Assembly (NCBI RefSeq): GCF_000372725.1
Contig: NW_005202428.1
Span: 1,349,331 to 1,413,330 of the forward strand
Direction: 5' to 3'
Length of the DNA: 64,000 nt
Source: Emiliania huxleyi CCMP1516
Lineage: Eukaryota
Part shown: one piece after another, positions 31,845 through 60,200 of the stretch
Position numbering within the stretch: position 1 is the first letter of the stretch
Layout: every line of letters begins with the position of its first letter
Program-made: the position numbers and the translations under genes
The notes under the pieces: generated by a model
The model's input: only the letters and a program-made list of their open reading frames with translations
Databases searched by the model: none
Told to the model about the DNA's origin: nothing

Positions 31845-31944
31845 NNNNNNNNNNNNNNNNNNNNNNNNNNNNNNNNNNNNNNNNNNNNNNNNNNNNNNNN
31901 NNNNNNNNNNNNNNNNNNNNNNNNNNNNNNNNNNNNNNNNNNNN
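31845..31944. other. Assembly gap (100 N)
   Basis: Run of N. Confidence 1.
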
Positions 31945-32905: not shown

Positions 32906-35141
32906 TCACTTCAGTCCAGGTCCAACACAGGCGGTGCCACCGCTGCTGCGGGAGCCGCCGCTGGGGCCGCCGTCACGGTCGCGCCGCCGCCGCCGCCGCT
33001 GCCGCCGCCGCCGCCGCCTGAAGACCCGAGCGCGAGGGCGCCGTCGCTGCCGACGCTGGCCGCCGCCGCGTCGAGGATGGCCGGCCAGTAGGCCTCCCCG
33101 AGGCTGTTGAGCCTGCTGAGGAGCGCCGCGGCGTTCTTCTGCAGCGACGCGGCGAGCGCTTGCTCGATGCGCGTCTTGACCGTCTCGGAGAAGAGCGAGG
33201 CGGCCTTGGTCGCGAGCCAGCCCATCGCGGCGGACCCGCTGCTGCGCACCTGCGGGGGCCGCGGCGGCGCCAGCTCGAGGCCGGAAGCTCTGGTCCACCG
33301 GGGGTGGATTGACTGGCTGGACCGCTTGGCTGACGAGGCACCGTAAGGTCGAGGTGGTGCAGCTTGATCAGGGGCGGGTCCATGCCGAGCTGCGGAGGAG
33401 CCGGCCCCGCGCCGCCAGCCGCCTCCTCCGCCGCCCCTCTCGGAGGCGCCGCCGCGTCCGCCACGCCGCCGGCCGCCTTTGCGAGCCGCGCCGCCGCCCA
33501 CGCCCGTGCGGCGGACGTCTGGTCGAGTCGAAAGGAGAGGCGAATCTCAGACGCGCCCGAGTGGCACTCGAGCTCGCCTGAGCAGCGGCTACAGCCGTGA
33601 AGAGACGCTGTTCACAGCTCCGAGCCGCCCGAGTGGCGCTCGAGCTCGCCTTCGCCGCCCACCCTCGCCCACCGCTGGTGCTGCACCTTCCAGCGGACGC
33701 CTCGTAGCCGGAAGGAGACGCCCCTCGCCTAACAAAGAATTGTGTTTGCGAAAAAGAAACACGCCGCGCCGCCGGAAGGCGACGCCCCTCGCCTCGAGGA
33801 CGAGGGCGGGACCGTCCGCGACGGCGAGAGTGAGGCGGTCGGGCGGGATGTGCAGGCTGCTCAGGTCGATGTCGCTCAGCTCGTACGCAAGCGACTCGCC
33901 TACTCACGGCCAGAGGCGTGGGGGGGCGCTGATCACGGCAGCAGCAGCTCGCGCGCCAGCGACTCGCCCTCGGCGCAGCGTGAGACGGGCGGCACCTCGC
34001 ACCGTCAAGCGAGGGGTGTGAAGGGAGGGGCGTGAGGAGAGGCGCACCTCCGCTAATCCATTACTACTGCTGAGAGAGTTGATTCCTCGACTCCTCAAGC
34101 ACCTCCACCGTCGGCAGGTACAGAGGTGCTACTCTAGTACTACTGGGGGAGTTGAAAGCACCTCCACCGTCGGCAGGTACGAGGAGAGGTACGAGAGCAG
34201 CGCGTCGCGGGCGCGGCTCAGCAGCTCGGCGCGCGCTTCCGGGTCGACGAGCGCGCGCTCCCCGTCCGAACAGATCGCCTGCACTGCGCCGCTGTCGAGC
34301 CGCTGCAGGGCGGCGACCTAGGCGAAGGTCCCGAGAAGGGTCGGCGAGGGCTCTGCCCGCCGCTGCCGAGCCGCTGCAAGGCGACCCCGTGCGCCAGCGC
34401 CTGCTGCCCGAGCTTCTGCTCCTGCACCCACTGGACGGCTCCGCCCAGCCGCCCGCCGTCGCCCAGCCCGCCGTCGCCCGGCTGCCCGCCGTCGCCGCCG
34501 CCCTGACTGCTTCCGGCGCAGACGTCGCACTTGACGCTCCCGCCGACGACGCGGAGCTGCACCTGCACCGCCGGTGGCGAGGGCTGCAGGCTACCGGTGG
34601 CGAGCGCGAGGACTCTGCGCAGAGCGTCCGGCTCGACGCCGCTTGTGGCGACGAACGATGCGCCCGCACTGACCGCGCTGCCGACGATGCCGCTGTCCAC
34701 CGCGCCACGCAGGCGGCTGACTGCGCCGTCGATGACCGCCGCGCTCTCCGCGGCCGCCGTGACGGACTGCTCCTCGACGTACCCGAGCACAGAGATGGCA
34801 GACTCGGAAGCCAGCACGTGGCCAAGCACCCGGTTGCCCTCCCGTCTGAGCGCCTCCAGCTCCTCCGACGATGCCACCGCGTCCAGCGCCGCTCGCACAG
34901 ACTCGCCGCCGCCAGGTGCCATAACAGCAGCGACAGCAGCGTTGGGGAATGAATCGACGCTGATCCCGGCCGACTCAAGTTGCTGCCGAGCGGCCGCGGC
35001 AACGTCGTCGAGGGAGGGAGCGCCCTGCTCGGCCAGCACCTCTTTCACCGTCTGGTCCACGCGGCCCACTGCCGAGCTTAACTTTGCCGCCGCGACCGAC
35101 GCCGTGGCCGCCGCTCTCTCGGCGAGGGCGTCGGCGTCCAT
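32906..35141 (-). CDS. Multi-exon hypothetical protein; C-terminal half weakly resembles a BPI/TULIP-like lipid-binding fold
   Basis: Start MDADALAERAAATAS; helical Ala-rich exons, then LSSYLPTVE, YELSDIDLSSLHIPPDRLTL and WLATKAASLFSETVKTRIEQAL. The fold call is inference. Confidence 0.5.
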
Positions 35142-42077: not shown

Positions 42078-43673
42078 TCAGGTGGTGAACCGAGGGCCCC
42101 CGAGGCGCTCTGGCAAGCTCGCCGGGTAGGGGGAAAGCTCCGACCTGCCTGGCGAGTAGGGCCTGTCCGAGTAGCGTCCGGACAGCGGCGACGGCTCGGG
42201 CGGCAAGTACCTACCAGGTTCGGGAAGGGGTCCCAGAGCCCTCCATGTGAAGGAGCGGCGACGGTGGCGGGGTCAAGGCGCACTCGAAGTCGCGCGGCGT
42301 CAGGCCGAGGAGGGCATCCTCGGCGGGGGAGTACCTGCGTGTGAGGACCTCTCGCTCCCCGCCGCCCCGAGGTGTGTGTGTGTGTGGTGGTGTGTGTGTG
42401 TGTTGGGGGGAGGGGGGGGGGGGGGGGGGGGGGGGGCGTACTCGGACGTCGGCGGCGAGCCGAGCCGGTAGTGCGACGCTGCGGCGAGGACAGCGGCGGC
42501 GTCGAGCGAGTCTGTGCCGAGCAGCATGGTGCGGTACCTGTCGGACCAGGTCCTGGAGGAGTGGGGAGGAGGCTCGTGCGAGTGTGCGCCAGGCAGCGAG
42601 TGCGGTGCATGTCTCGTATCCGAGGAAGCGACCAGCCGTACACAAAGGCGTTGAGTGCGCCCTGCAGCGGCAGGCGGGGAGAGCGTGGAGGTGAGGCAGT
42701 GGCCTCTGCGCACACAATGTGGTGGGGCGAGGGCCAGGCAGCCCTCGCATCTCCACGCCCAGGCAGGCGAGGCAGGAGGCGGCACGGCATTGACAGTGCA
42801 AGGCCCAGTGGCGGAGCAGGCCTGCAGCGGCATGCACATCGCCTCGAGCGCCGCGAGCCCGTACGAGGGGGCTCGCCTCGCACCGCAGAGCAGCACCTGC
42901 AGCCGCACCAGCAGGGAGGGGAGCCAGACGACGGCGAAGACGAGCAGGTAGAGCGACGTCGAGCGAGAGACGCGGGCCTCGGTGGCAGAGCGGCAGACGA
43001 GCGCATACGTCGCCGTGTTGAAGGCGAACGCACCAACCAGCGGGAGGTAAAAGGCGAGGAGGTACTGCGGCGTAAAGTCGGGCCCGACGGCGCAGTACGA
43101 GCCGGCGTCGCCGACGTACCCCAGGGCGTACGTGCCGCCGGCGAGCAGCGCGGGCAACGGCCAGCAGAGCGCGTGGAAAGTGAGCTCGGCGTCGCGCAGC
43201 GAGATGCGCGGCGCCGTGGCGGCGGGCGGGGCCACGTCGCGGTAGAGCGTGCGCGCGAAGCAAGAGGTCCAAAAGATGGACGCGAGGTTGAAGTAGAGCA
43301 GCCCGACGGCCTGCACCTCGCAGAGTGGCGAGGGACTGTCGCCGGGCGCGCCGTCGGCGGCCGGGTAGGCGGTGTCGACGAGCACCCCGCACATGTTGAA
43401 GATGGAGGCAAAGCCGTCAGCGACGGCGAGGTAGCCGATCAGCCGCATCGCGAAGAAGCGCTTGGAGAGCTCGCGGAAGCGGTACATCGAAACCAGCACG
43501 AGGCTGGTGCCCGCGAGCGATAGCGTCGCGCTGACGAAGACGATGAGGCGGAGGTGCCACTCCTCCTCGAGCGAGAGCGGCGTCTTGCGGCCGCCCTCGC
43601 CGGCGAGGCCCATCAGCGGCTCTCCCTCGCCGGAGAGGCCCACCAGCAGCTGTCCCTCGCCGGCGAGACTCAT
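42078..43673 (-). CDS. cAMP-receptor/GCR1-like 7TM GPCR, multi-exon
   Basis: SATLSLAGTSLVL, RLIGYLAVAD, LCEVQA...FNLASIFWTSCFA, HALCWPLP, YLLVFAVVWLPS and PLQGALNAFVYG. Confidence 0.85.
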
Positions 43674-43849: not shown

Positions 43850-45097
43850 ATGTCCACCCCGCGGCGCCGCTCGCGCCGCCTCGCCGCCGCCGCCGCCGCC
43901 GCCGCGCACTGCCCCCTCACCGACCTGCCCCTTGAGCTCCTCGCGCGCGTCATCTCTCGCTGCGACCCCGCCGACATCGCTCGTTTCGGGGCCGTCTCGC
44001 TGCTCTTCCACGCCTCGCTCGCTCAGGAGGGCATCCGCTTGTTGGCGCAAGAGCGCGGCTTCGAGCTGCCGGCGCAGCCAGAGGGCGAGAGCTGCGCCGT
44101 GCGGTGGCTGTGCTATTCGGCGCTGCTGTGCGAGTCCAACCCGCCGGCGAGGCTGGCCACAGGCGAACGGCACAGCGTCTTCATCGACGGCGAGGGGCGG
44201 CTCTCGTCGTGCGGCAATGCGCCGTCGTACCTTGGAGGACTGCTCGGGCACGGCAATGGCGTGATGCAGCTCAACACGCCGACCCGCCTCCTCTCGATGC
44301 TGGGCGGTGAGCGCGCCGTGAGCGTGTCGGCCGGAGCATTCCACAGCCTCGCCATCACCGCCGATGGCGCCGTCTGGAGCTGGGGCGGTGGAATGTACGG
44401 CAAGCTGGGCCGCGGTGACCAGCAGCGCCAGCTGCTGCCCAAGAAGGTCGAGGCCTTTGACCAGTGTGTCGTTGCTCTGTTGGCTGGAGATATGCACAGC
44501 CTCGCCCTCACCGCCGACGGCGCCCTCTGGAGCTGGGGCGATGGATGCCATGGCAAGTTGGGCCACGGCGACGAGCAGAACCAGCTGCTGCCGAAGAAGG
44601 TCGACGCATTTGCTGGGCAGCGCATCGTCGCAGTATCGGCTGGAGGCGAGCACAGCTTCACCCTCACCGCCGACGGCGCCGTCTGGAGCTGGGGCCGTGG
44701 AAACTTTGGCCGGTTGGGCCACGGCGACACGCAGAGCCAGCTGCTGCCGAAGAAGATCGGGGCCTTTGCTGATCAGCGCGTCGTTGCCGTGTCGGGTGGG
44801 TGGGGGCACAGCTTCGCCCTCACCGCCGACGGCGCCGTCTGGAGCTGGGGCTGGGGAGCCTTTGGCCAGCTGGGCCACGGCGACCAGCAGGCCCAGCTGC
44901 TGCCGAACAAGATCGAGGCCTTTGCTGGCCAGCGCGTCGTCGCTGTGTCGGCTGGAGAGCAGCACAGCCTCGCCCGCACCGCCGACGGCGCCGTCTTCGC
45001 CTGGGGTGAGGGCAAGCGCGGCCGCCTAGGCCACGGAGAGCACCTGTCGAACCAACTGCTGCCCAAGAAGATCGAGACGTGGGCGCCGGGGCAGTGA
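43850..45097 (+). CDS. F-box-like + RCC1-repeat protein, intronless
   Basis: LTDLPLELLARVISRCDPADIARF, followed by about six repeats of VSAG..HSLALTADGAVWSWG.G..G.LGHGD...QLLPKK. Confidence 0.9.
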   Translation: MSTPRRRSRRLAAAAAAAAHCPLTDLPLELLARVISRCDPADIARFGAVSLLFHASLAQEGIRLLAQERGFELPAQPEGESCAVRWLCYSALLCESNPPARLATGERHSVFIDGEGRLSSCGNAPSYLGGLLGHGNGVMQLNTPTRLLSMLGGERAVSVSAGAFHSLAITADGAVWSWGGGMYGKLGRGDQQRQLLPKKVEAFDQCVVALLAGDMHSLALTADGALWSWGDGCHGKLGHGDEQNQLLPKKVDAFAGQRIVAVSAGGEHSFTLTADGAVWSWGRGNFGRLGHGDTQSQLLPKKIGAFADQRVVAVSGGWGHSFALTADGAVWSWGWGAFGQLGHGDQQAQLLPNKIEAFAGQRVVAVSAGEQHSLARTADGAVFAWGEGKRGRLGHGEHLSNQLLPKKIETWAPGQ

Positions 45098-45443
45098 GGA
45101 GAAGGGCGAAAGGGTGCAAGGTCCTGTGTTGCCGCGTTGTGTTGCCGCGTTGCCCACGTGCCTATCGCCACCTGCGACGTATGTTGCGAGAGGCGAATCC
45201 GGCCCCACGAGCGAGCCCCACCACGATTTTGGCACAAGACACTTGGAGCACTTGGAGTGCAGTCGGTAACCTCACATCCAGGGCCGGGGAGCTAAGAAGC
45301 GTACCCAGCGGGCCGGATGATCTCTACAAAAACTCACATGAAAGCGGCGAACGAGGCACGGTTAACTTCGCGTTCCTCTTTTTTTGCGGCTGTCGCGGCA
45401 CGAGCGTCGAGCGTCGCCGTGGCGCTGCCAAGCTGCCAAGCAG

Positions 45444-47993
45444 ATGGTCTTTTACTTCACGTGCTCGGACCCTCGCTATGTCATCTACATGGGCCGCGAC
45501 AAGCACGAGAACGAGCACCTCATCGCGTACGGCTGGCCAGAAGACCTGTGGTTCCACGTCGACAGCCACTCGAGCGCGCACGTCTACCTGCGGCTGCCCA
45601 AGGGCGAGACGATTGACGACGTTCCCGACGAGATCGTGCAGGAGTGCAGTCAGCTGTGCAAGGCCAACTCGATCGAGGGCTCCAAGCTCTCGCACGTGCG
45701 GATGATCTACACGCCGTGGGCGAACCTCAAAAAGACGGAGGGGATGGCCGACGGACAGGTTGGCTACCACTCTCGCGGCGCGGTGCGGCACACGATGGTG
45801 GAGCACCGGGTCAACGCGGTGGTCAACCGGCTGAACAAGACCAAGGTCGAGATGCACAACGACCCGAGCGAGCTCGCGCGCCTCAGGCGCGGGCGCCACT
45901 TCGGCTGCTCTCCCCTTGACCTCGGCTGCTCCTCTCGGCTGCCGCACCTCGGCTTCTCCCTCTCGGCGGCTGCTCCTCGGCTGCCGCTTCTCGGCGCGAA
46001 GCGCGACGCAACTGCCGCTAGGCGCGAGCGCGACGCGGCGGAGGCGGCTGAGGCGCGCCGAACGCGCGAGGAGTCCAAGGCGGCGGTGGCGGCAGAGGAG
46101 AAGGCGGCGAGGCGCGAGCGGGCGGAGGAGGAGGCGGCCGCGGCGCTCGCGCGCGCCACCGGAACGCTGTACAGCGCCGAGTCATTGGGCGCCGCCCGCG
46201 CCGCCGCGTTGCACGCCGAACCTAGATGCGCGGACACAGCTGGTTGCAACCACTGCTCGGGTGCACGCCCTCGTCTGGACTCCGCCATGCTGACTCCGCC
46301 ATGCTCGCACGCGGCGACTCTCGTGCGCTCACGATGCAGACCCCCCTGGGAAGAGCAGTGAGACTGCAAGGTAGGCACGCCGACGCGGAGCGCCAGATCG
46401 CAAAGGCGAAGAAGAAGAAGGGCGAGCGGAGGGGAGGCGGCGTCGCCGACGCGAGCTTGGTGGGTGACTCTGGATGCGGAAGAGCGGCGGTCCAGCTAGC
46501 GCTCGCGACGACACGCACGCGGCTGCATCGAAGTGCACTGCAGCCGTGTCCCCGGATCTGGTAGACCTCGTGTTGCCGCGCCGCTAAGAAGCTGCACGAG
46601 CCCCTCCCCACCCCCTCACCTCCCTGCGGTGGGTCCAAGCTCCCCGTGTCTGGAGCCCAGGTGGACGACCTGTTCGGAGACCTCTGCCTCGCCTCCCCGG
46701 GCGGCGGTGGCGGCGGAGGAGAAGGGCTCGACGCGGGAGAGGAGCCAGGGCGAGGACGCGTCCGGGACCCTTCCGGGACCCTTCCTCTAGGCGACTGGCT
46801 CGACGACGACGACGAGGAGGACCCCTTTTGGTCGAGCGGCCCCTCTGGCGGTTCCTCCTCCGCCGCCTCCGCCGCCGCCTCGGCCGGGGAAGGGTTTGGA
46901 GGGCCGGCGGCGGTGGCACAGACGTGGCGCGACGCGTCGCTCGGCGTGCTGGGCGAGGAGGTTGCACGCGTGGAGGCTGGCCGCGCGTCCTCTGCCGTCG
47001 AGAGGAAGGGGCGCGGAGCCTCCCCTGAGCCTTCTCTGCGCCCCTCCCTGCAGGCGGGCCGCAAGTCTGCCGGCGAAATGGAGAGGCTGACGGAGGCGGC
47101 GCACGAGCGAAAGGCGGCGGCAAAGAGCCGCGCGGCGGAGGCGGCGGCGAAGAAGGCGGAGGCGGAGGCCAAGGCGGCGGAGGCGGTGGAGGCGAAGCGG
47201 CGGGAGCTGCACGGCCAGCGGGAGCAGGCGGCGGAGGCGGCGGCGAGCGGCGCACGGGCGGCGCAGGCGCGACTCGAGACCGGGCGGTGGACACGCCCAC
47301 AACACGCCCACGACACGTACTCGACACGCCCACGCCACGCCCACGACACGCCCACGACACGCCCACGACACGTCCGCGACACGTCCGCGTGGCGCGTCGG
47401 ACAGGCGCGACTCGACGCGGACCGCGCGGCGGGGTTGGCAGGCGCGGCGCTGGAGGAGAACGAGGTTGGGTGGATGTGCGGAGGCGGCGCAGCGGCGGGG
47501 AGGGCGGCCTCACGCGGGTTCGGTCGCTCCTTAGGCGGCTCAGGAGGAGGCGCGGGCGGCGCAAGCGGCGTGGCGTTGCCGGGCGAACCCCCTGCTGAGC
47601 AAGCTCTCCCCCCCCCCCCCCCTCCCCCGCCACTTCTCCCCGCCGCAGGAGCTGATGGTTCTCGAGGCGGTGCTCGGCGAGGAGGGTTTCGAGCGCGAGG
47701 AGGAGGCGGCCCCGCCCGCTTTCCGGCTCACCGTCGCGGGCGAGCGGGCGCGCGGCGAGCCGACCGCAGTGCAGCTCCGCGTCACTTTCGTCGTCGAGTA
47801 CCCGTCGCACTTGCCGCCCCGCCTCGAGATTGTCGACGGCGTCGCGGCCGAGGACGCGCCGCTAGTGCGCGACTCGCTGCTCGCACTCTTCTACGCGCAG
47901 CGCGAGGAGAGCGCGGCGGCGGGCGAGCCAGCGGAGGGCGTGGTGCACCGCTGGACGGAGTGGGTGAAGGAGGAGTGGATGCCGTCGAGCTGA
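45444..47993 (+). CDS. CCDC25: CCDC25 (NFACT-R/DUF814) protein extended by coiled-coil and C-terminal RWD-like domain, multi-exon
   Basis: MVFYF..IYMGRDKHENEHLI.YGWPEDLWFHVDSHSSAHVYLR..LCKANSIEG..YTPWANLKKT. Introns at 45887-46021, 46211-46374, 46460-46660 and 47267-47404 (plus others) link to ELMVLEAV..LRVTFVVEYPSHLPP..GVVHRWTEWVKE. Confidence 0.8.
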
Positions 47994-48586
47994 GCGGGCG
48001 AGACCCTTGCCCCGTGGGGCGAGCTGCCTCTCGTCTGCCGTCTGGGCCGCACACTTAAAGAGTGGTATGCCCTCGTCTAGATTCAAAAGTTGAGCACAAT
48101 TATTCTCAAGAGTAAGTTTTGCCGCATTTGTGCCTCTGCCTTACGTCAGTAATCTCTAGAATCTAGCGTCCCCCGCCGAAGACCGAGAAGGCGAGAAGCG
48201 CTAGGTCCGTCGTAGTCGTCACAGCGTATGTAACCTATATAAGGGTCGACAGGGCGCGCCTCGCGAGGCTGAGCTACAATCCTACAAATTACGTTCCTCC
48301 TGACTTACTCACTCGCGCGCTTGCTTTTTTTCGCTCCACAGCCCTCTGGTCTTCACCATCCCCCTTTTGGAGTGTGAGTGTGCGACGTCCTTGTGAAGGC
48401 TTGAAGTAGACCGGAGAGATGGCTACGAAGCCTTCACAGCATCACAGGTGCTGGTTCTTACTATTATACACACACGCACACTTGTCGCTTGTCGCGGCGG
48501 CTAGGCCCCGGCGTAGGCCACTGGCAGGCGGGCGTAGCTACCTGACCGACTATTGCTCTCTGTTCAACGCCAGAACAACGCAAGTC

Positions 48587-50980
48587 CTACGCTAGCCTGA
48601 GTCGGGGGTGGGTGGGTGGCAGGTAGTCCTGTGGTGCAGGTGGACGTCGGTGCGCAGCACCATCAGGAAGACGGCCCCCCTTTGGTGATTGCTCACGACC
48701 AGGGAGAGAGACGTGCTGTGCCAACAGCGGCGCACGGTCAAAGAGCGACTGGGCACCGCTTGCCGCGCGCTTGATTGTCTGCTCGACAGCATCCTCTGCC
48801 ACGTCGACTGCTCTCTGCACCGTCGACTCATCCAGGTGGAGATGAGTTCTCCCGAAGCGGTAGACGAGAATGACAAGGGCAGCAACGACGGCCAGGACGA
48901 TGGAAAAGATCACGGCAGTGGAGAAGTTGTCCGTCGCGAGCACCGGCGGGGGCGGTGCGGGGGCGTGTACGGGGATAGAGCTCGACGGTGGAGGAAGAGA
49001 AAGTAGCTCACGGGCGTCGCTGAGAGCAAGGTGGTGAAAGAATATTGGTGTCATGCAGACGTGGCCGACGATGGCGAGCGGGAAGACAGTCGTATGAGCT
49101 CTCCAGGTCAGCTTCGGAAAGGTGCGGGGTGGAGGGCACTGATTCCTCAGAAGATTGTGCCGATCAATGAGCATACCGTATGAGAAGAAGAGAGCGCCGA
49201 AGAGGTAGAGGATGGGGAGAGCAGATCCAAACACGAGGCATACGACCACAAACTTCCCAGCGAGCTGGATGCGGAACGCAAGGTAGAGGTCCGAGTCCTT
49301 GATAAACAGGCGGTCCATCCGTTGCTGCGTCTTTTGGCGTGGCGCGAGGAGGTACCGCCGGATCGGAGTGTTTAGGGAGATCCAGTCAAGCAGGGTCGGA
49401 ATAACAAGCGCATCGCCAAGGGGGCCCATCACTGTCGCGACGGTCGCCCCTCCGAGGCTGTACCAAGAACGCCCAAAGATTCCACCCGTGACTGACAGGA
49501 ATATCATCGCCGACGCGACGGTATTGACGACCTGGAAGAAGAGCAGCTTCGCGAACACGGATGCCTCGCGATCAGAGTAGGTCGGGTGGCGCTCAAGGAC
49601 GTCAGCAAGGACGGGGGTCGACGCGAACAAGATGAGATTCCCGAATATACAGGGCAGCGCCTGCAACAGGAGCACCGCCAGCAGGTCCATGATCAAGCCG
49701 CTAAAGCCGCCACGATCTCGGGGAAGCGCGTCGCTGAGCAGGCCTCCATTCTTGTCGTTGGCCCACGTGATAAAGGCGATGATGGCGGTGCCGGTGCCGG
49801 CAATCAGCATCGTGATCGTCGTGGAGACCACTTGTCGCCAGAGGCGCTCGCGCGCGGGGGTAGCCAACCCTTCCCACAAAATGTCTGACGGTGCAGGTGC
49901 GCGCTGGGCTGTCACGCCTGAGGGAAGCGTCGGCAGCGACGGCACGGGAGCCTCGATGCCGACCTTTGCTTTGCGTGGCACTCGGGCGCGACGGTGGGGG
50001 CGGCTCGATATAGCGATCGCTTCGATGCACCGGCGGGCCTGCTCCGCCTTGGAGAAGGTGGCGAAAGCATCGCCAGTCCCATCGTATGCCTGGCGAGAGA
50101 GACGAGCAGTGATTGAGTCGTGCTCCGCGAGCTCACGGCGCGCCTCCTCCTCCTTTGCCAGCAAGTCATCCGCTGAAGCCGTTTGCCCTACTCGGTCGAG
50201 GAGCTCAAGCACCGGCCGAAGTAGCTCTCGCCGGGCTGAGCCTTGGCGGCATCGTTCAGCCTGCCGCGAGAGGTATAGCAGCGCGGTCAGGTGCTGCAGA
50301 TTCTCCAGTAGGTGTTGCCGTGCCGAGAGACGCTTGAGCAAAACCCCGTCCTTGCGCGCGAGCACGACCTGGGTGCACTCGCCAAAGCACTCCAGCTGCG
50401 ATTGCAACACCGCTGCTTGGATTCTCGGCGGCAAACCGCGCAGCCACACCGTCGTCTCCTCGGGCGCCTCCTCTGGGTCGTAGTGGTCGACCTGGTCCTT
50501 TGCAGCAGCAATGATGTCTCGGCCACGGAAGAGCGATATAACGAATATGCTCAAAACGATGAGCTCGACGGCGCCGTAGCTTGCGTTGATGGCAGCCGCC
50601 TTGACATCGCCCAAGGACCCTTTTGTCAGCCAAGATGCATTCTCCAGGTTCGAGCCGCTGACATTGGAGACCATGCTCGGAAGCACAACAGCAAAGGCGA
50701 GAGAGAAGGTGACAAACATGAACCGCTGCCACTCCATGTAACTGTACACCCCGGAGCCGAAGACCTTGAAGCAGTCGATCGAACATGACAGAGGGAGCAG
50801 CTTGCCTTCATGGTCGCGAGGCAGCGCGGCCCGTTGCACCTGACGGGAGACCTGCAGAGAAGGCTTTGCGACGAGCGCAGCGACCTGCGTCAGTGTCGCC
50901 CTGCGTATTGCGTGCCCGCGCCACGCTGCGGAAAGTCTAGCCTGCGCCAAGTGCGGCACGCGGCCGGGCTCGCTCGCCAT
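48587..50980 (-). CDS. OSCA/CSC1/TMEM63-like mechanosensitive channel, intronless
   Basis: FGSGVYSY, TVWLRGLP, AFATF, RAPAPSDILWEGL, LERHPTYS..VFAKLLFFQVVNT, LVFGSALPIL and LIDRHNLLR, with multiple hydrophobic helices. Confidence 0.8.
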   Translation of the reverse strand: MASEPGRVPHLAQARLSAAWRGHAIRRATLTQVAALVAKPSLQVSRQVQRAALPRDHEGKLLPLSCSIDCFKVFGSGVYSYMEWQRFMFVTFSLAFAVVLPSMVSNVSGSNLENASWLTKGSLGDVKAAAINASYGAVELIVLSIFVISLFRGRDIIAAAKDQVDHYDPEEAPEETTVWLRGLPPRIQAAVLQSQLECFGECTQVVLARKDGVLLKRLSARQHLLENLQHLTALLYLSRQAERCRQGSARRELLRPVLELLDRVGQTASADDLLAKEEEARRELAEHDSITARLSRQAYDGTGDAFATFSKAEQARRCIEAIAISSRPHRRARVPRKAKVGIEAPVPSLPTLPSGVTAQRAPAPSDILWEGLATPARERLWRQVVSTTITMLIAGTGTAIIAFITWANDKNGGLLSDALPRDRGGFSGLIMDLLAVLLLQALPCIFGNLILFASTPVLADVLERHPTYSDREASVFAKLLFFQVVNTVASAMIFLSVTGGIFGRSWYSLGGATVATVMGPLGDALVIPTLLDWISLNTPIRRYLLAPRQKTQQRMDRLFIKDSDLYLAFRIQLAGKFVVVCLVFGSALPILYLFGALFFSYGMLIDRHNLLRNQCPPPRTFPKLTWRAHTTVFPLAIVGHVCMTPIFFHHLALSDARELLSLPPPSSSIPVHAPAPPPPVLATDNFSTAVIFSIVLAVVAALVILVYRFGRTHLHLDESTVQRAVDVAEDAVEQTIKRAASGAQSLFDRAPLLAQHVSLPGREQSPKGGRLPDGAAHRRPPAPQDYLPPTHPRLRLA

Positions 50981-51484
50981 GCTGGCTCATGCTTGGAGCC
51001 ATTGCGCACGGCCGTTACCGACCGGGCCCGCTCCAATTTCTTTTCTTCGAGGAAAGGTTCCCCTTGGGAGAGTAACACTAACCGCCAACGCTAGCGCACA
51101 ACGACCTGGGTCGGGCTCATAGCCTCACACTAGCATCCCACCTCGCGAGCCGATCTGGCTCAGCGAGGCTCGGCAAGGCTGAAGCACGGGGCACACGGCG
51201 GCTCGGGTCGCTCCTCAACGCAAATCCGTAGAAGCTGCTCGGGGCACCTGCTTTAGGCTAGGTTAGGTAGGAAGGTGAGAACAGCCAGGCTCGGACGCGG
51301 TATGCTCGTCGTGTAAGAATTTCGTCAGAGAAGAAACCTTCGTCCGGGGGTCGGGCTCCCCCCTCCCCCCCCCCCCTTAAGGGGGGGGGGGGTCGGCCAA
51401 AAAACACCTCGCTGGCCGGCCACGGCGGGCACCCGGCCGGTAGCAACACCGCCTTCGGATCCCTCTACGCTCGGCCCCTCGTAT

Positions 51485-52930
51485 ATGCGCGCCTACATCC
51501 TCCTGACCATCGCGGCGACTCTGCCCGGCGGGCTTGGCTTCGCTTCCCACGGGCCGGCGTGCGTCGACAGCGATGGGGAAGTCCCCGCTCTTGCCGCCTC
51601 TCTCGGCGTGTACGACATCACCTCCTGCGCGGGAGTCTTGCTGGCCGGATACTGCCCACGCGTCCCATCGGAAATGGCGCACTACTGCTGCGCCTCGTGC
51701 TTCGCTCCAGACCGCGTCTCTGACCGCGAAGCGCGCAAAGGGGGCGGCCCGGCACCTGCACCTGCGCCGGCCCCTGCATCAACCCCTGCGCCAACCCCTG
51801 CCCCCAGCTGTCCAAAGCAGTACACCTACACAGTGAACACTGGCACCTTCTGGGACCCCTTCCTCAACGCGTGGGCCTCGCTCGATTGCAGCAAGGCCGA
51901 CCCGACCTGCGACGGCCTGACGTGGTGCGCACAGGAGGCGAAGCGGCTCTGCCCCGGGAGCCCCGGGAGTGGCATTCTCGAACACGCCGGAAATTGCCCC
52001 AGGCCCAACGAGGGGTGTGGTGTGTACTCACGTCCAGATGGCAGCGGCCCAGTCGCAGACCGTGATGGGCGCTGCTGGCTGGGCGGCAAAGGCGCCTCCT
52101 GCGGCAACAACAACGGATATGACTGCATGAAGCTCGTGAAGGAGAACGGGGAAAACAAAGGGGTCTGCCGCGACAACGAATGCCAAGACGGCAACTTTTA
52201 TGCAAAGTGCGGACACGACGGCGACTGCAACGGGGATCGCCGCTGCGTCAACGACCGATGCAGCTGCAGTACCACCGGCGGCGACACACAATGCCTGCCA
52301 ATGTGCGAATGTTCGGCGTATGAACTAAAGTTCGGTGGCAACGGTCTGGGGGAAGTGAAAAGGACACCAAGCTGCGAACAGTGCAGGCAGCGACCGGAAG
52401 TATATGATTGCGACCCCGAGAACCAGAATTGCGATAGCGTTCCCAGGTACGACCCCGCGAAGCAGAGATATGGGGGAGGGGGGCACGGCGTTTGCTTGAA
52501 CCATTACCAATGGAATTCAGTGGGCGGTGTAGCAGCGGTGTACTATGGACAATGCCAGACCGGCAAAGAAGGTGCGCTGTGCGGCAGCGATGGGGATTGC
52601 ATCAGCGGCCACTGCTACGAAGGGCTGTGGCAGTCGGCAAATTATGGTTACAAGAAGTGCTCACCACACGTGTACGACTACCCCCGGTGCGTCACCGAGG
52701 AGCCCAGCTGCCTCGTGAACAATGGCGGCTGTCCGAACGGGCTGCCGTGCCACCAAAGAATTGGCGGGGTCTACCGCGTGGACGGGACGGGCGCTAGACT
52801 TGTGCCACCCCGGAAAAAGTGCTACCGCGCATTAACGGGCTGCTGGGGGTGCTTGAACCTTGGTTCTGATGGTGAACCCATCGGAGTCGCCAGCGGGGAC
52901 GTCGATCATTACGGCGCCTGCCCATACTAA
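51485..52930 (+). CDS. Secreted cysteine-rich protein (ShKT-like N-terminal module, PA linker, C-x5-C repeats)
   Basis: Signal peptide MRAYILLTIAATLPGGLG; CVD...SC...C...YCCASC; PAPAPAPAST linker; KCGHDGDC and LCGSDGDCISGHC. Confidence 0.75.
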   Translation: MRAYILLTIAATLPGGLGFASHGPACVDSDGEVPALAASLGVYDITSCAGVLLAGYCPRVPSEMAHYCCASCFAPDRVSDREARKGGGPAPAPAPAPASTPAPTPAPSCPKQYTYTVNTGTFWDPFLNAWASLDCSKADPTCDGLTWCAQEAKRLCPGSPGSGILEHAGNCPRPNEGCGVYSRPDGSGPVADRDGRCWLGGKGASCGNNNGYDCMKLVKENGENKGVCRDNECQDGNFYAKCGHDGDCNGDRRCVNDRCSCSTTGGDTQCLPMCECSAYELKFGGNGLGEVKRTPSCEQCRQRPEVYDCDPENQNCDSVPRYDPAKQRYGGGGHGVCLNHYQWNSVGGVAAVYYGQCQTGKEGALCGSDGDCISGHCYEGLWQSANYGYKKCSPHVYDYPRCVTEEPSCLVNNGGCPNGLPCHQRIGGVYRVDGTGARLVPPRKKCYRALTGCWGCLNLGSDGEPIGVASGDVDHYGACPY

Positions 52931-53552
52931 TGAACTGGCGAGCGGGGCAATGCACCAATGCCGAACGACCCCGGTGCCACAGACCAGAATCGGTGCTGCA
53001 AGTCCGGCACAAGCGCACGCAACATGTAAAATATGCGAGCTCTTCTCGGCGTGAGTCCAGCGCGCCAAATGAGGCTCTCCACTGGACAAAGGTTAACGGT
53101 ACACGTCGGCACCGTGCACCGCCTCGGTATACAAAATGCGCCTGCGGGCGGACACCCTCACAGATCTCACAGATCACTAGCTCCATGTCACGCCCCAGCA
53201 CGTGCTGCCAGCAGCAGCACTCCGGGTGTCCGGCGTGTGACAAAGCGTCCTTCCGTTAGAATTAAGAACATCGTGTGGATTCTTCGTATGTTATGAGAGA
53301 GCATGTGCATGGCAAAGCACGTCCCAGATCAGGCACCTAGGGCGACACAGAGCCGCGCGCTCGCCGCACACTACGTAGTGACACTAGCTAGCGACCGCTT
53401 GTCCATGTCCATGTGCATTGTGTATTGGACCGAGGTGCTACATGCAGACAGTACTCTATATTCGCGGGCAATGCCGAGGACGGCCGGGCGCGCTCCGCAA
53501 GGTAGAGGGCGGGCATATCTCTGACGGCGTGAGGGCGCGGCGCCACCCGCGC

Positions 53553-54026
53553 TCACGCACCGTTGACGTTGACCGTGATTGTCTTCGCAAACTCCTTTCC
53601 GTACGACTCATGGTAGGCGTTTGCGAACTGCAGGGTGATCTTGTGCTTCCCTGGCTCCAGCTCGAGCTCCCCCTCCGACTGCGCCTTCCCGTAGTGCTTG
53701 TGGGTGGCATCCATCGGGATTGCCTCGCCGCTCTTTACGAAGGCTGTGGGAGCGTCGATGATCATGTGGTGGTGGCCAGTGCCTTCCTTGAGCCCAGCGG
53801 CAGCAGGCGAGAGCGCGTACCCGGTGACCTCAAACTTGTACGTGAACGTGCTCGGCACCGTATCGCCGTCCTTCACGTTTGTGAAGTACACGCTGTTCTT
53901 TGGACCCTTGGCACACGCGGGCGACGCGACGGTGAGCACCGCGGCGGCGGCAGACGCAAGAGCCTCCCGTCGCGGCATGGGCTGGAGCACGAGGCCGACA
54001 AGAGTTGGGAGCACAGCGATCATCAT
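53553..54026 (-). CDS. DUF4399-family protein with signal peptide and twin-Arg lumen-targeting-like peptide
   Basis: VYFTNVKDGDTV, GTGHHHMIID, HKHYGKAQSE..LEL.PGKHKITLQFANAYHESY; presequence MMIAVLPTLVGLVL..RREALASAAAAVL..PACA. Confidence 0.8.
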   Translation of the reverse strand: MMIAVLPTLVGLVLQPMPRREALASAAAAVLTVASPACAKGPKNSVYFTNVKDGDTVPSTFTYKFEVTGYALSPAAAGLKEGTGHHHMIIDAPTAFVKSGEAIPMDATHKHYGKAQSEGELELEPGKHKITLQFANAYHESYGKEFAKTITVNVNGA

Positions 54027-54425
54027 GCGTGCCGAGAGCAGCGACGCGGGTGCCGAGACGGCGACGACCCGGGTGAAGAGCCGCTAGTGCAGCGAAACTG
54101 CAACACCGAAAGAAAGAAAAGTCGCGCGGAAGTTGGGTTGTGCCGGTTGCCTAGGATACTGATTGTGCCAACAAGATAAAAACGAGATTACCGTCCGGCA
54201 CCGGGACGCACGCCGGCGACATTAGCTGCTGTACGGCCCCGGCATTGCCTCCCCTGGATAAGCTAGACCGAGAGCGTCGGCGAGGCCGACTACCTGTCGC
54301 TGCTCACGCAGCACACCTAATTCCTGCTGCCTCTTTGCCTCGACGCCGCAGCGCGCCAGCTGGCTGGCCTGGCTGCCCCCATCGCCCTCCTGTGGCCTCT
54401 GCTGCAGCCTGAAGCACTCGGCGCA

Positions 54426-55764
54426 ATGCTGACCACCGCAAACGTACTGACGTATGTGCTGCCCACGCTGTTGGTCTTCCTGGTGCACGCCCCCATCGAC
54501 AACGGCGGCTTCCGCTGGGCCTGGAACGCCGGGTTCAACCGCGTGCTGCGTACCCACTTCAGCAGCCCTGAACAACAGAAGTATCTGCAACTGATCCGGA
54601 AGTGGGCGATGGAACACAACCCGTCGAAGCACACGTCCAGCCACTGGTGGTACTCGGAGCTGGGTTCGCTGACGCCCGCCTTCGACGCGCTGGTGCACAG
54701 CCCGGAGGTCGCCAGCATGTTTGCCTCCATCTTCTCGCCTCGCTGGTACACGGTGATCCCTGTGTGGGGCATGAATGAGATATACGTGAGCGGCCCGAAT
54801 CGAACGGGCAACTCGGACACGGTTTTCTACACCAAGCACATCGACGGGCCCTTCCCCTTCTTCCCCTTCGCCTCCTGCTTCCGTTGCATCGTGGGCATGG
54901 ACAACAACACACAGGTCTCCACCGTCTTCCCCATGGTGCCCACGTCCATCACTGCACAGCAGGGCAACCTGGTGGCCTTTGACTTCCACCGCGAGCCGCA
55001 CTTCATCCAGGACCACCCCAACGCTGGCCTGGCGAACAAGGAGCAGCGCATCGTGCTGAAGCTACACTTTGTCACGTACCCCACCCTTCTCATGCCACTT
55101 GGCCGCCTGCTCGCCTTCATGAGCACGTGTTACAATCAGCTCTTCCGTCTGCTCTTCGTGAGCACCATCACGCCGGAGACTGCGCTGGAGAAGTTCGGCG
55201 CGTGGAACGTGGTCTTCTGGACGCACGCGTTCAACAAGGCTGAGGAGTACGTGGGCTGGAACAACCTGTCCTACCTCGCCCTGCTGGTGCACCTCAGTGT
55301 CGCCAGCTCTCAGCCCCTGGTGCTGCTGCTCGGCACGTCCTTCGTGCACTACGTCCGCTACATCAAGACCTTCTACTGGCGCACGGAGCTGCAGTGGGCG
55401 ACGTTCAAGCGCGACGTGCTTGTCTTCAAGACGGTCTCGCTCTCGCAGCTGGTGGCGCACTACCTACACTCTACTTTGCTGCGCGCCAGAGCGCGCAGCC
55501 TACACTACTGTGGCCCGTCGCCCTATCCCTCTCGCTGCTGTTTGTCGGCTACTTCGTGAGCATCTCCGCCACGTTCGCGCTGGGCGTGGACCGCACCTAC
55601 TTTGGCGAGGAACTGGGCTACTGCCCGCCCAAGCGCGTCACCCGGTTCCCTTATGGCCCCACCCCATGATTGTGAGTCAGATTGTGGCGCTGTGCGGGTT
55701 CCACGCTGCACCTCACTTCCGGCAGGCCATGCCGCACTTGGTGGCGAGAGCTGATACCATGTGA
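54426..55764 (+). pseudogene. Dioxygenase-like + phospholipid N-methyltransferase (PEMT)-like membrane protein; two 3' frameshifts, 5' end probably disrupted
   Basis: MNEIYVS, TKHIDGP, FDFHREPHFI and RIVLKLH; after shifts at ~55465 and ~55657, LGVDRTYFGEELG..VTRFPYG and HPMIVSQI (PEMT-like). Confidence 0.65.
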
Positions 55765-55870
55765 CGGCGGAGTTGACGTCTCCGACGGTCGTAGCGGCGT
55801 GGCTGAGGGCGGCGGTGGAGGCGCCCGAGGGCGCGGCGTGGCTGGTCTCATGGGTCTAGCAAACCATAAA

Positions 55871-56023
55871 CCACACTGAGAGGATGCGACGAAAGCAGGC
55901 GGGCGATAGCAGGACGCACGAACTAGTTAGAGGTAATATGACCTCGGTGGGTGTGAAAGGTCTACCCATTACCCAAGAAAGGGTTGGCGCGGTTAGATGG
56001 GAGGTAGAATGTCTACCTACCGC
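55871..56023 (-). repeat. Repeat family C, second copy
   Basis: Reverse complement of 11462-11612. Confidence 0.9.
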
Positions 56024-56382
56024 AAGAAGCGAGCCGCTCGCGGCGAGCAGTTTTAGAAAAAGGGAAAAGGGGGAGGGTTAGTTTGAACCCGAGCCGAGCT
56101 TCGCTCGGCTCCCCCCCGCGCGGGAGCGCCCCCCCCCCCCCCCCTCTCCTCGGGGGGGCGGGCAGAGCCCGCACCACACACTGCGCCTTTGCGGACGCCG
56201 GACCGAGGCCTAAGCGCTGAGTGCGCTGACGTGAGGCTGGAGCGCCAGAGAGACCCGCGCCTGAGCATGCTGCCGCGGGCGAAGTTTGAGTGAGCTGTGT
56301 GAAGCCCCGCGCACACGCAATATCGGCTCAGGAGTTCGGAGAGTCAGGCCAACATAGGATCCCGCCGAAATGCGTAACTCCG

Positions 56383-56529
56383 AGGAATCAGGAATCAGGA
56401 ATCAGGAATCAGGAATCAGAATCCCGGTCAAAATGTTGGAATCAGGAATCAGGAATCAGGAATCAGGAATCAGAATCCCGGTCAAAATGTGGGCGATCCG
56501 ACAAATCAGGAATCAGGAATCAGGAATCA
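56383..56529. repeat. (GGAATCA)n 7-bp minisatellite with higher-order unit
   Basis: ggaatca arrays punctuated twice by gaatcccggtcaaaatgt. Confidence 0.95.
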
Positions 56530-56871
56530 AATGGAGCATCAAGAATAGGAAGAGAGACAGGAGAATCGGGAGGGGGGAGCAGAATCAGGAATTGGCTCTG
56601 GCTGCCCTAGAGAATCGGAAAGGAAGCGGAGGAAACGAGAATGGAGAATCAGGAAGCTGAAAGCGGGGCCAAGATGGGAGAGTCTGGGGAGAGAATCAGA
56701 ATATCTGAGCAGAAGAGGAACCTGGGAAGGGGAATCTAGTGAGAGGTAGAATAGCAAGAATCCTTGTGTAGTAGAGCAGAATAGGAATGGCAGAATCCTT
56801 AGGCGCGGACAGACTTCTCCATTACTCGCTTTGTCGCCATACACGTTTTTCTCTTCTGATTATGCGTTCCA

Positions 56872-57095
56872 TGGATATTGTGCACATGGTCAGTCTCTAC
56901 AATATATACACTGACACTTCACCTCCCAGAGCTCGACCCGGTCCGTCACGGCCATCCCCTGCGCTCTCGCTCGGCCTCCGGCCGCGGCGCGGTGTGGTGG
57001 CGTCAAAAATCCGAAGAGGACTGGGACGCGGTCGTCGGACGTTCTGAGGTCCAACTAGGCGTATGGATTGCCCACCCAGGGCTATCACCTGGCCC
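56872..57095 (-). mobile_element. Repeat family A, copy 3 (partial)
   Basis: gatattgtgcacatggtcagt..acctcccagagctcg..gaggtccaactaggcgtatg..cagggctatcacctgg is the reverse complement of copy 1. Confidence 0.85.
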
Positions 57096-57215
57096 AGTGG
57101 CACGACTGCTCTTCACAGCCTGGCCCAAGTCGCAAGCTTCATGCACAGCCGACAGTTCCGACGCCTCCAGCGCTGGAGGCGGAGCTGACACAGACAGCGT
57201 GGGCAGCCGTCGAGC

Positions 57216-60200
57216 ATGCTGCTCCAGTCGGCGGCTCGCCTCGAGGAGGCCGTCGGCGCGGGCGACACTCTGACCGTGGACTCGACGGGCCGGCTCGCGG
57301 CGCTCGGCGTCCGCCGCGAGATATGGATTGTCGATCTCGAGTGGCCGTGGGAGCCGTGCCGCGTGCTGCCGACGCCCGAGCTGGCACCGCCGGTGGCGCT
57401 GGAGTGGCAGCCGCAGCGAGGCGCGGGATCCGGGCGCACCATCGCGTGCGCGTCCGCGGACGGAGCCCTCCGCCTGTACGACGGCGCCGCTGAGCCAGGC
57501 GCGCTGTCGCTGCTCGTCACGCTCTGCGGCCGGGCGGCAGGCGGCGGGTGGCAGGGCCCTCGCGACTGCGCGGTGCAGCACGTGGCGTGGAGACCGGCCG
57601 CGCCGCACACGCTTGCCGCCGCCACTGCCGGCGGCGGCCTCGCATTCTTCGACTGCCGCGCGGGAAGCGCGTGGCACCTGGCGATGCGTGAGGGCGGCGG
57701 AGGCGGAGGCGGGCCGTCGGCATCAGAGGGTGGCGGCGCCGGCCGCGTCTCGTGGTGCGGCGGGCCGGCTGACGCTGGCGGTGCCGCGCCAAGCGGCGGC
57801 TGGCTAGCACCGGCTGAGCTGACGGACAGACGGCGGCGAAACTGATTAGGCGGCGGCGCGAGGGAGCACCTGCTCGCTGCTCTGTGCGGCGACAGGGTGC
57901 ACATCGTCGACGTGAGGCGGCTCGCGGACCGCGCCTCCTCCGCCACGCTCGGCTCCTTCGGCGCGTGCTCGTCGCATCGATCCCTCTCTCCGTACTTCTC
58001 TACCCTCTCCCCTGAGCCTCGTCTCCGGAGCTGTGGACGAGTACCCGGGTAGGCTAAACCCTCGAGGAGCGGCGGGCGGCCGTGAGGAGCGAGCACGTAC
58101 TCAGCACACTGGCGTGGTAAACAGGCTCGACCTCGAGACGCGGCGGACGATACTCGTGGATCGAACCTCCCAGTCCGCGCTCCTCTCCCTGCAGGCGTCG
58201 CGTGCGGGCGGGGCGTCTCGGTTGCCGTCTCGGTGGACTGGGCGGGCGGTCCCTGCGGCGGTCCCTGCGGCGGTCCTTGCGCGGGCGGCGAGGGGCTCGG
58301 GCCTCGCCGCGGTGAGGCGGAGTCTGGCGCCGACCCTCCTCCCCGCTTGCCTCTGCTCCTTACGAGCAGCCGCTCGGTTGGAGGAGGCGGAGGAGGAGGC
58401 GGCGGAGGAGGAGGCGGAGGAGGAGGCGGAGGAGGGGGCGTGGTGCAGCTGTGGGACGTGCGACTGTGTGGCGGCACCGGCGAGGGGGGCGAGGGCGGCG
58501 GAGGCGGCTCGCAGCAGGCGCCCTTCGACGCGCGTTGTGTCGCCACCGCCGCAAGCCGCGCGCCGCCGACTTGTGCGCTCTGGATGCCGGCGGCGGCTCG
58601 CAGCGGAAGAGGCATCGACACGGCCTCTCCTCCTGCGGCGGCGGCGGCGGCACTAGCAGCAGACGCTGCGGCGCGGCTGCACGCACGCCACGCTATCTCG
58701 CAGGGAGGTGGCCACTCACCGCTTCGCCGCTGGTTTGCATTCGCTAGGTTGCGCCGCGCGGGCCGCACGTCATGCCCGGGACATGTCCGGGACACGTCCT
58801 CGCCGTGACCGGCGCCGCTGCAGTGGGCTGGCTGGCCCTTAGCTGGTGTTGCGCCACACACCCAAATGGCTGTAGGCGCCCCCGCTGCGGAGGGCGACGA
58901 CGGCGCGTCCCCGGGCGCGGGCATCCGTTTGTGGGGCGTCGCCAGCGGCAGAGGTGGCGGCGGGCAGAGCGGCGGGCAGAGCTTGCGGCTTGTGCGGGGT
59001 GCCGCGGGGGTGAGAGACGCGTCGGTCTGCTCGGTCGCATGGTGCGGGTGCGGCGTGGGCGAAGAGGCGAGATTGCCCGAGGACGGATGAGCCGAGATGA
59101 CTCGAGATCATCAGAGGTGAGCCGAGATTACTCGAGATCATCCAGGTGACCCGAGATGACCAGAGGTCATCAGAGGTGACCCGAGATGACCCGAGATGAC
59201 CCGAGGTAGGCGCGCCTCGTCTCGCTGGGGAGCGACCGTCTCCTCGGCGTGTGGCGGGTCGTGCGGGCGGCAGCCGACCAGGCGGAGCCCGACGCAGACA
59301 CCCGCAGCGAGCCGTCCTGCCGAGCGGCGGGGCCGGAGGGGGAGGGGCAGGAGGGGGAGGGGCAGGAGGGGGAGGGAGGGCGGCACGGCTCGCGAGGCGA
59401 GCCGGCCTCCGCCGGTCACGACATGTCCAGGACACGGGCATGACATGTCCGAGACATGTCCGTAGGAGATGAGGCCTCCTCCAGCGCCGCCCTGGCCGCC
59501 GGCCTGGAGGGCGAAAAGGTGGCTGGCGAAAAGGTGGCTGGCGCGGCGGCGGAGTGGGGGGCACTGGAGAGGTGTGTGCGGGTCGCGCAGGCGGCGTGGG
59601 CGAGAGAGCAGCCGCCCTTCCCGCCGCTCCTCTCGCTGGCGCCGCCCGCGCAGTTCTCGGCCTCCTCTCCTCGCGAGGCCGCCGCAGCTTGTCGAGGAGT
59701 GCCGGCCGAGTCTCTGGTGCCGGCCGAGTCTCTAGTGCCGGCCGAGTCTCTCGCTGAGGTGCGCATCAGCTGCACCTTGCCGGAGGTGGTCGATGCCGAA
59801 GGCGTTGCAGCAGAGGGCGACGCAGCAGAGGGCGGTACAGCTGGGAGAGGAGGCGGCGGGGGAGGAGGCGGCGAGGGCGGAGGCGGCGCGCTGCCGCTGC
59901 TGCTGCGCTGGCCTCACGAGCTACCGCCCTCGCTCACGGCGGCGCCCGAGGCGGCCCTCAGCAAGGCGGGCCTTCGGGCGGAGGGGCGCGTGCCTGCCGG
60001 CGGGCCGCTCGCTGCGGCGGTCCTCTCGGAGGCGGAGGCGGCGCTCGCCTCCGCGTGGAGGAGCGCCGGCGCGCGCGACCTGCCCTCGCTGCTGCGCGAG
60101 CTCGCAAGAGCCGCCGCTGCAGCGGAGGCAGCCGCGCTGGCCGCGCCAGAGGCGGGCAGCTCGCGCGGCGGCGCGGCGGGCGCGGCGGACGCCGCAGCGG

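Follow-up and report, generated by a model that had tools for sequence, protein, structure and literature searches.

Introners, the intron source most closely comparable to the introns considered here, co-opt the donor splice site, carry the acceptor and are accompanied by duplications of 3-9 bp (PMC9860276; PMC11282704; 10.1101/2020.10.14.339549; these and the other cited papers are drawn on in part). For Emiliania huxleyi, 79 initial and 653 total introner elements have been tabulated (PMC9860276 Table S5), and a further supplement lists three introner families, of 5, 6 and 45 introns (PMC12130899). In Daphnia, introns associated with staggered double-strand-break repair are bordered by 4-12 bp repeats (33 cases; PMC4202315, PMC3443670, PMC3296678). 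The present analysis concerns "echo" introns, whose first bases repeat the first bases of the next exon, in a window of 64,000 nucleotides of E. huxleyi CCMP1516 (NCBI RefSeq assembly GCF_000372725.1, contig NW_005202428.1, positions 1,349,331 to 1,413,330, forward strand); the window is this whole stretch, and positions are counted from its first letter. An earlier note on this DNA had reported that such echoes recur in unrelated genes, and all the pairs that it quoted were found at an intron start and the start of the next exon. The echoes are real and recur in unrelated genes beyond chance.

A protein mapping to the window groups with one from E. huxleyi CCMP1516. GC content in the window is 60-76% per 2-kb bin, and Pfam supports the identification of genes for NOC3, a GTP_EFTU GTPase (GTPBP-like), an NFACT-R plus RWD protein (CCDC25-like) and a G protein-coupled receptor (GPCR) of the Dicty_CAR family. 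The names CCDC25 and WDR59 are labels taken over from the earlier note, and the protein of the WDR59-like relative has no Pfam match. Nineteen introns were fixed independently of the echo: four in the CCDC25-like gene by RNA joints, ten in the GTPBP-like gene and five in NOC3 by transcript-derived proteins. The joints come from contigs of three sequencing runs guessed to be RNA, from three studies, which cover positions 44100-64000; those listed are 15 of 381, and they were slid to GC, GT or GA..AG before comparison with introns. A full-length protein on a transcript-sized contig (P0001), identical at 612 of 614 residues, fixes the GTPBP-like introns, and a second such protein (P0104; 635 of 637 aligned residues identical) those of NOC3. 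The remaining introns rest on a relative's protein or the reading frame, as indicated for each below. The full list of 42 introns was partly chosen by echo; GTPBP intron 2, which has no echo, is counted among the 19 and omitted from the sets of 18 and 42.

The echo score compared the intron start with the next-exon start from base 3 onward, and pairs were permuted with the splice consensus preserved. The 19 fixed introns scored 112 in total, whereas permuted pairs averaged 27; none of 200,000 permutations reached the observed total, and nine of the 19 were individually significant (p<0.05). A chance-level outcome, which the earlier note had named as fatal to its claim if found in a genome-wide test, is rejected for the three test genes; these were chosen with knowledge of their echoes (two from that note and one afterwards), and nine of 19 does not represent a genome-wide fraction. 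The mirror comparison in the same introns, between the upstream exon end and the intron end, showed no excess (10 versus 12.4 expected, p=0.71). In a blind scan of both strands, 15 of 825 YAG|G sites matched, versus 0.4-1.0% for eight decoy dinucleotides, and the scan added three long echoes in a minus-strand gene. By eye, several genes of the window look intron-less or have echo-free introns.

Echo strength drops as intron length rises (Spearman -0.78, p=1e-4, 18 introns), and a gapped echo was significant in all six fixed introns of up to 80 nt versus one of 12 longer ones. Twenty of the 42 listed introns measure 62-78 nt and none 79-104 nt. The shorter, "class II" introns (64-78 nt), most of which had gone unnoticed before, consist of an echo of 14 to ~40 nt followed by an acceptor tail of 30-60 nt. 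Their ungapped echoes match at 24/25, 29/32, 28/32, 23/26, 21/22, 20/23 and 14/14 positions, and the filler after the echo is 30-62 nt long in 15 of 16 introns. Intron tails are common to unrelated genes: 16 of 861 pairs exceeded the 99.5% null, versus 4.3 expected, through 11-13-nt repeat types and one non-repetitive 22-mer, the tails of 19350-19422 and 33649-33578 being alike at 20 of 22 nt. Only tail pieces of 16-33 nt are shared between class II introns, and no families emerge between +10 and +45 (5 of 861 pairs versus 4.3 expected). The filler has no copy in the flanks in either orientation and is not further exon.

Two duplication-plus-filler events of class II size straddle existing donors, include intron bases and made no new intron. 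At 18591-18693 (plus strand), a 28-nt duplication at a spacing of 75 lies over an existing GT donor and encloses a purine-rich repeat filler that does not end in AG; the intron that hosts it, 18611-18789, carries AGATGC at 14 nt inside the second copy of the donor. At 34097-34180 (minus strand), a perfect 25-nt duplication over a likely donor, at a spacing of 59 and with 34 nt of filler, is nested in the inferred intron 34161-33996. The intron bases within these duplications indicate that the template was not spliced RNA. Pure tandem duplication was tested and rejected: it would place an AG at a required offset, where it is found in one of 16 introns, and the last 25 nt match exon at 4-10 positions; one fixed duplication length for all failed once the GTPBP echoes had been aligned. 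As DNA-transposon introners, they fail on end-to-end homology, on a 3-9 bp duplication and on inverted repeats, and as non-LTR insertions by target-primed reverse transcription (TPRT) they have several tail types, no A-tail and no intergenic copies in the window.

The longer, "class I" introns (164-237 nt) have an echo of ~9 nt and partly homologous bodies. Two of them in different genes, 46460-46660 and 63366-63551, are 72% identical over 95 nt (blastn E=4e-7), the pair 6055-6236 and 63366-63551 is related at p<=0.003, and three of 15 class I pairs reach p<0.05. AGATGC or GGATGC stands at +13 or +14 in five of the 42 listed introns, a motif chosen after it had been noticed. Among the six members, four to six match the exon at each position through +9 and two to three at +10 to +12. 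Comparison of their inverted repeats with those of other introns gave p=0.11, and across all 42 listed introns there is no terminal inverted-repeat signal (own mean 10.9 versus 10.0 against other introns). No non-intron copy of class I was found in the window or the fetched loci. An intron-motif search of viral contigs (6, 1 and 8 loci) and prokaryote genomes (64) gave nothing that matches class I introns by blastn, and the contexts read from the 6-, 1- and 64-locus sets are by appearance unrelated or bacterial repeats. Judged from these sequences, class I is probably an old, decayed introner-like family; three introns of the earlier note (6055, 46211 and 46460) belong to it.

Like introners, the echo introns place the donor at the start of a duplicate and the acceptor inside the insert, leave the message unchanged and use GC and GA as well as GT donors. 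Class I fits this description, behaves like an introner family and probably is one. Class II behaves like an introner yet fails the defining tests: in the introners closest to the present case, the duplicated length is a constant 4 or 8 nt, and inverted repeats and body homology are common, whereas class II duplications span 14 to ~40 nt and the introns share tails only. One family listed for the same strain, fam24/fam11 (PMC12130899), resembles the present introns in its length (~70 nt by its coordinates), in co-opting the 5' and carrying the 3' splice site and in "10bp terminal direct repeats"; compared by its listed description only, it differs in comprising five introns, all with GT, two of them in paralogs, and an automated duplication length of 2. 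The rows for this family in the portion of the supplement drawn on mention neither long echoes of variable length nor GC donors nor how frequent these are. Daphnia-type gains also have adjacent exon sequence directly repeated at the far end of the new intron, filler of obscure origin and later internal duplications, and differ in being AT-rich, recent and variable between alleles, whereas here repeats reach ~40 nt, tails recur and alleles share introns (PMC4202315, PMC3443670). A direct repeat joining an intron end and the adjacent exon is present here, within the 4-12 bp limit in class I and beyond it in class II, whose repeats are longer than those of Daphnia-type gains. Tandem duplication of an AGGT-containing exon (PMC3443670) likewise draws the donor from duplicated exon, and in the inferred intron 34161-33996 and one intron of a related haptophyte (L013, below) a duplicated AG|GT supplies both splice sites; under that model, however, the whole intron should copy exon, and AG stands at the corresponding offset in one of 16. 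In the portions of the literature searched, including the haptophyte genome papers PMC13518057, PMC11347835, 10.1101/2024.05.26.595999 and PMC10290126, no description of long variable echoes was found; the 2013 genome paper and Huff 2016 lie outside that search and may bear on novelty.

We put at roughly 0.55 the probability that the echo introns arose by gain, from inserts ending in an acceptor AG whose target was duplicated and whose donor was co-opted, with class I as an old introner family and class II as a product of break repair or fork restart. Insertion into an exon would duplicate the target, the GC or GT at the start of the duplicate would become the donor, and splicing would restore the message. 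For class II, a strand engaged in break repair or fork restart would copy a stretch of exon, switch to another intron's 3' end, copy 30-60 nt up to its AG and rejoin at the start of the duplicated exon stretch; products below ~62 nt would be lost, and survivors would lengthen by repeat expansion as the echo decays. Neutral fillers number two against about ten that made introns, though luck predicts far more neutrals, and it is therefore likely that the filler comes as a ready acceptor or that the process is linked to transcription; a ready acceptor in turn favours template-switch capture of another intron's 3' end.

Gain is also suggested by related haptophytes. The GTPBP comparison drew on loci L002, L012-L014 and L016 and on single-frame proteins from contigs of up to 525 kb, and nine of the ten intron sites are unbroken in every haptophyte relative that spans them. 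The nearest relative (P0101; placement support 87-88, from quick, weakly resolved trees) reads through five sites, including that of echo intron 18449, before entering an intron of its own, and a second piece of it spans a sixth. All five NOC3 sites are unbroken in relatives, each a single open frame on a contig of 10 or 12 kb. In one relative (L013:2258-2401), a 129-nt intron lies between perfect 15-nt repeats spanning AG|GT; its 114-nt filler runs from TTAGGG repeats into CCCTAA-type repeats, head-to-head, with a 14-nt palindromic junction, and L012 and L014, in which the exon is 92% identical, have one repeat copy and no intron at the site. The comparison shows a clear lineage-specific gain.

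Many introns of the GTPBP genes of L012, L013 and L014, and of the gene neighbouring that of L013, consist of arrays of the hexamers CCCTAA, CCCTCA or CCCTCG, and several end in TAACCAG or similar; the CTAAC in these ends resembles a branch site. Interstitial telomeric tracts are reported to be pervasive in a coccolithophore by one haptophyte genome paper (one of PMC13518057, PMC11347835, 10.1101/2024.05.26.595999 and PMC10290126). GTPBP residues 284/285 and ~580 mark intron sites in several haptophytes (L012, L014, P0008, P0101; P0047, P0166, P0171) that are absent in E. huxleyi, and since two shared sites are missing there, intron loss likely accompanied gain.

Several observations weigh against gain by insertion. 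The relatives are distant (~65-85% protein identity), the genomic origin of their contigs was judged from length or read-through, and intron loss in the relatives is a possible cause of the unbroken sites. Site 347, that of intron 19094, is common to L016 and P0047 and missing in other lineages, pointing either to parallel gain at AAG|GT or to the remodelling of an old intron. Strong duplication-plus-filler pairs with spacings of 59-75 nt lie inside genes, intergenic matches being tandem or repeat arrays, so that a splice-blind repair process would be too simple, and the link of such duplications to introns is itself indirect. For none of the tails was a donor locus found, in a comparison that included no whole genome. 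An exon beginning with G follows all 19 fixed introns, all 42 listed ones and nine of nine introns of relatives, which suggests an AG|G requirement across haptophytes; being equally universal in the relatives, the G-initial exon is no argument for this mechanism. Two environmental alleles of the one gene compared, GTPBP, keep the same introns and show no presence/absence polymorphism: L046 carries all eight introns of the conserved part and L047 five of the five covered. Differences in them are few; at 19369, the base just after the scored echo of 19350, the window reads A and L046 reads G. Such sharing fits old, fixed events. The earlier note had read the spread of identities as events of different ages in a continuing, genome-wide process; echo identity to the exon does range from 100% down to ~73%, and the echo is weaker in longer introns, as different ages would have it, whereas the sharing of introns by L046, L047 and a DNA-like sequencing run gives no sign of a process that continues. 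Two kinds of event contribute to the spread, and echoes of 9-14 nt with selected donor bases are a poor clock.

The main rival to gain by insertion, unlikely in our estimate yet the strongest of the alternatives, is the overwriting of old introns, in which a break near the 5' end would be repaired on spliced RNA or cDNA, copying 10-40 nt of the next exon before rejoining the old 3' part; an echo would then record an aborted loss and not a gain. Overwriting covers the exact start at exon base 1, the intact acceptor, the sense orientation, the restriction to genes and the shortness of echo introns, as well as the position of intron 19094 at a site common to two other lineages, and it accounts for ready-acceptor filler as well as template capture does. 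It requires, however, a separate source for the many lineage-specific sites, and it predicts spread lengths, not the gap seen between 78 and 105 nt (in a list partly chosen by echo). The two class-II-sized duplications that hold intron bases and the L013 gain also speak against it, and it leaves the homology of class I bodies unexplained.

LINE-type TPRT, which would insert either a SINE-like RNA with a terminal AG or 3' tails from excised introns, appears improbable. Target-primed insertions give variable-length target duplications, and the duplications of 7 to ~40 nt, the fillers of 30-62 nt in 15 of 16 introns, the terminal AG of the inserts and the tails common to several genes are all consistent with them. 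There is, however, no single 3' end and no A-tail, and no such insert lies between genes on either strand of the window; moreover, the purine-rich filler at 18619-18665 lacks a terminal AG and the L013 filler contains both orientations. We also give little credence to the proposal that all echo introns are DNA-transposon introners of many decayed families, with long echoes as short duplications extended by chance or slippage. Class I fits it, as does the E. huxleyi family of ~70 nt listed with terminal direct repeats (PMC12130899), yet echoes of 24/25, 29/32, 28/32 and 23/26 lie far above the 3-9 bp of introners (PMC9860276), inverted repeats give no signal and the +10 to +45 stretch is at chance level. 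Chance plus a common preference for G after AG in GC-rich sequence, to which the G-initial exons, the insignificance of some echoes (46460-46660, p=0.14) and a mite study in which protosplice sites accounted for an excess at boundaries (10.1101/051292) would lend colour, is refuted for the three test genes by the permutations, in which the first two bases were skipped, and is opposed by the blind scan, so that it deserves almost no weight.

The GTPBP-like gene (plus strand) holds five class II introns, each fixed by P0001: 18449-18519 (71 nt, echo 24/25), whose site the nearest relative spans unbroken; 18864-18930 (67 nt, 29/32, GAGCCTTCC-type tail); 19094-19168 (75 nt, GT donor, echo of ~22 nt), at the site common to two other haptophyte lineages; 19350-19422 (73 nt, 14/19); and 20031-20102 (72 nt, gapped echo of ~26 nt).

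In the CCDC25-like gene (plus strand), RNA joints fix 45887-46021 (GC..AG, echo 11/13, a body of short CTCGGC-type repeats), the class I introns 46211-46374 (GC..AG, 9/9, AGATGC at +14, T before the donor) and 46460-46660 (GT..AG, 7/9, body resembling 63366-63551) and a class II intron with a GA donor, 46719-46790 (72 nt, 12/15), that was absent from the earlier note. The pairs previously reported at 45887, 46211 and 46460 are thus present, in introns spliced out in the RNA contigs and retained in the DNA-like run, which covers 45416-47351 unspliced with one difference, carries the CCDC25-like introns and is possibly the window's own source. Frame and alignment point to a further class II intron at 46976-47053 (78 nt, gapped echo of ~40 nt, donor predicted). 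At 47267-47404 (GC..AG, with an 11-nt GACACGCCCAC array), the reported echo is intact at 11/11 and the frame is kept; the intron has no RNA joint among the joints listed, and between two RNA anchors the spliced model measures 599 nt versus 614 in the contig, a 15-nt mismatch. Over 33 nt, the tail of this intron nearly matches the one at 63700-63813. An echo-free intron, 47465-47648, placed by frame, precedes an RWD-like domain (Pfam RWD E=1.7e-4, just below the cut-off), and an RNA piece begins at its acceptor. Across 45444-47996, the NFACT-R coding region and the C-terminal RWD-like domain lie in one frame, and a single RNA contig spans both.

Three NOC3 introns (plus strand) are fixed by P0104: 5605-5709 (GC..AG, weak echo 11/15), 5775-5944 (GC..AG, decayed gapped echo, p=0.010 gapped and 0.14 ungapped) and the class I intron 6055-6236 (9/10, AGATGC at +14), so that the two NOC3 echoes reported before, at 5605 and 6055, belong to genuine introns. 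Just upstream of the NOC3 start, at 3776-3942, a perfect 17-nt repeat recurs 151 nt apart with CAG before the second copy and may mark an echo intron within the 5' UTR.

The WDR59-like gene (plus strand) contains class II introns at 60269-60340 (72 nt, echo 14/14), detected in the blind scan, and 60586-60656 (71 nt, 14/15, ~34 nt with gaps), both placed with a relative's protein (P0115). P0115 runs through the first site, where the identical echo described earlier is upheld; this intron has no RNA joint among the joints listed. Farther along the same strand are the inferred class I introns 61887-62123 (echo 7/7, AGATGC at +13, enlarged by an array of 10-nt repeats, boundaries inferred) and 63366-63551 (10/11, homologous to 46460-46660 and 6055-6236), just before which, at 63364, an RNA piece ends. 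The blind scan contributed an inferred class II intron at 63586-63654 (69 nt, 21/22) and an inferred intron at 63700-63813 (114 nt, 18/22, GACACGTCC array). Upstream of a BTB/Kelch-like gene, at 29200-29800, nested inverted and direct repeats include a 10-nt CCGAGAT unit that also fills WDR59-like introns.

On the minus strand, the two GPCR pairs described earlier were located by frame at 42538-42608 (71 nt, echo 8/9; also Pfam) and 42335-42441 (107 nt, 9/10), and a third intron, 42662-42821, again from frame, has a left-sided echo, its last 11 nt repeating the upstream exon end. A further minus-strand gene holds class II introns at 34318-34385 (68 nt, GT donor, gapped echo of ~30 nt; frame), 33900-33967 (68 nt, 20/23), 33729-33792 (64 nt, 28/32, AT-rich tail) and 33578-33649 (72 nt, 23/26), the last three from the blind scan and frame. 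The first of these had been placed near 34320-34385; its echo holds, with the end corrected to 34318. A profile search with this gene gave two proteins, both unspliced read-throughs and uninformative on splicing.

Elsewhere, 23634-23735 is a near-perfect 59-nt tandem duplication without filler, and at 56383-56529 AGGAATC heptamers form an array with a higher-order repeat of 54 nt. By eye, a dispersed repeat several hundred bases long occurs in three diverged copies, at 8540-9060, 31190-31680 and 56880-57100, and a long inverted duplication (~31940-32070 and ~32290-32540) beside a 100-N gap could be either a palindromic element or an artefact of assembly.

Donors in the 42 listed introns comprise 25 GC, 16 GT and one GA. 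In 13 of the 18 fixed introns, the donor is the same dinucleotide as the one that opens the next exon. The base before the donor is other than G in six of 27 echo introns versus none of 15 others (p=0.056), and at +3 or +5 there is a hint that the intron is closer to consensus than the exon (six cases, the reverse in one, among 26 listed introns). Across E. huxleyi, 56% of donors are GC, 40% GT and 4% GA, with GC content given as the probable cause (PMC4028052). In coding exons of the window, GC is the commonest of these dinucleotides (507, versus 205 GA and 147 GT); GC-rich coding exons as the source of donors would lead to a GC majority, and co-option from exons would yield the same bias.

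How new introns originate has yet to be settled, and introner screens that rely on homology find only families with similar bodies, three small ones in this species. The echoes in nine of the 19 tested introns, from three genes, are long enough for dating against the exon; echoes also let aligners slide splice sites, 60269-60340 having been shifted by 12 and 6 bases in this analysis. As a tentative extension, which we regard as possible rather than probable, Emiliania may run a transposase-free intron factory in which introns give their 3' ends by template switching to exons duplicated over 15-40 nt, many introns hold a dated copy of their insertion site, GC donors are a by-product and related haptophytes use telomere-like filler. 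Donor co-option would also replace the GC-content account of the 56% GC donors (PMC4028052) with a mechanism.

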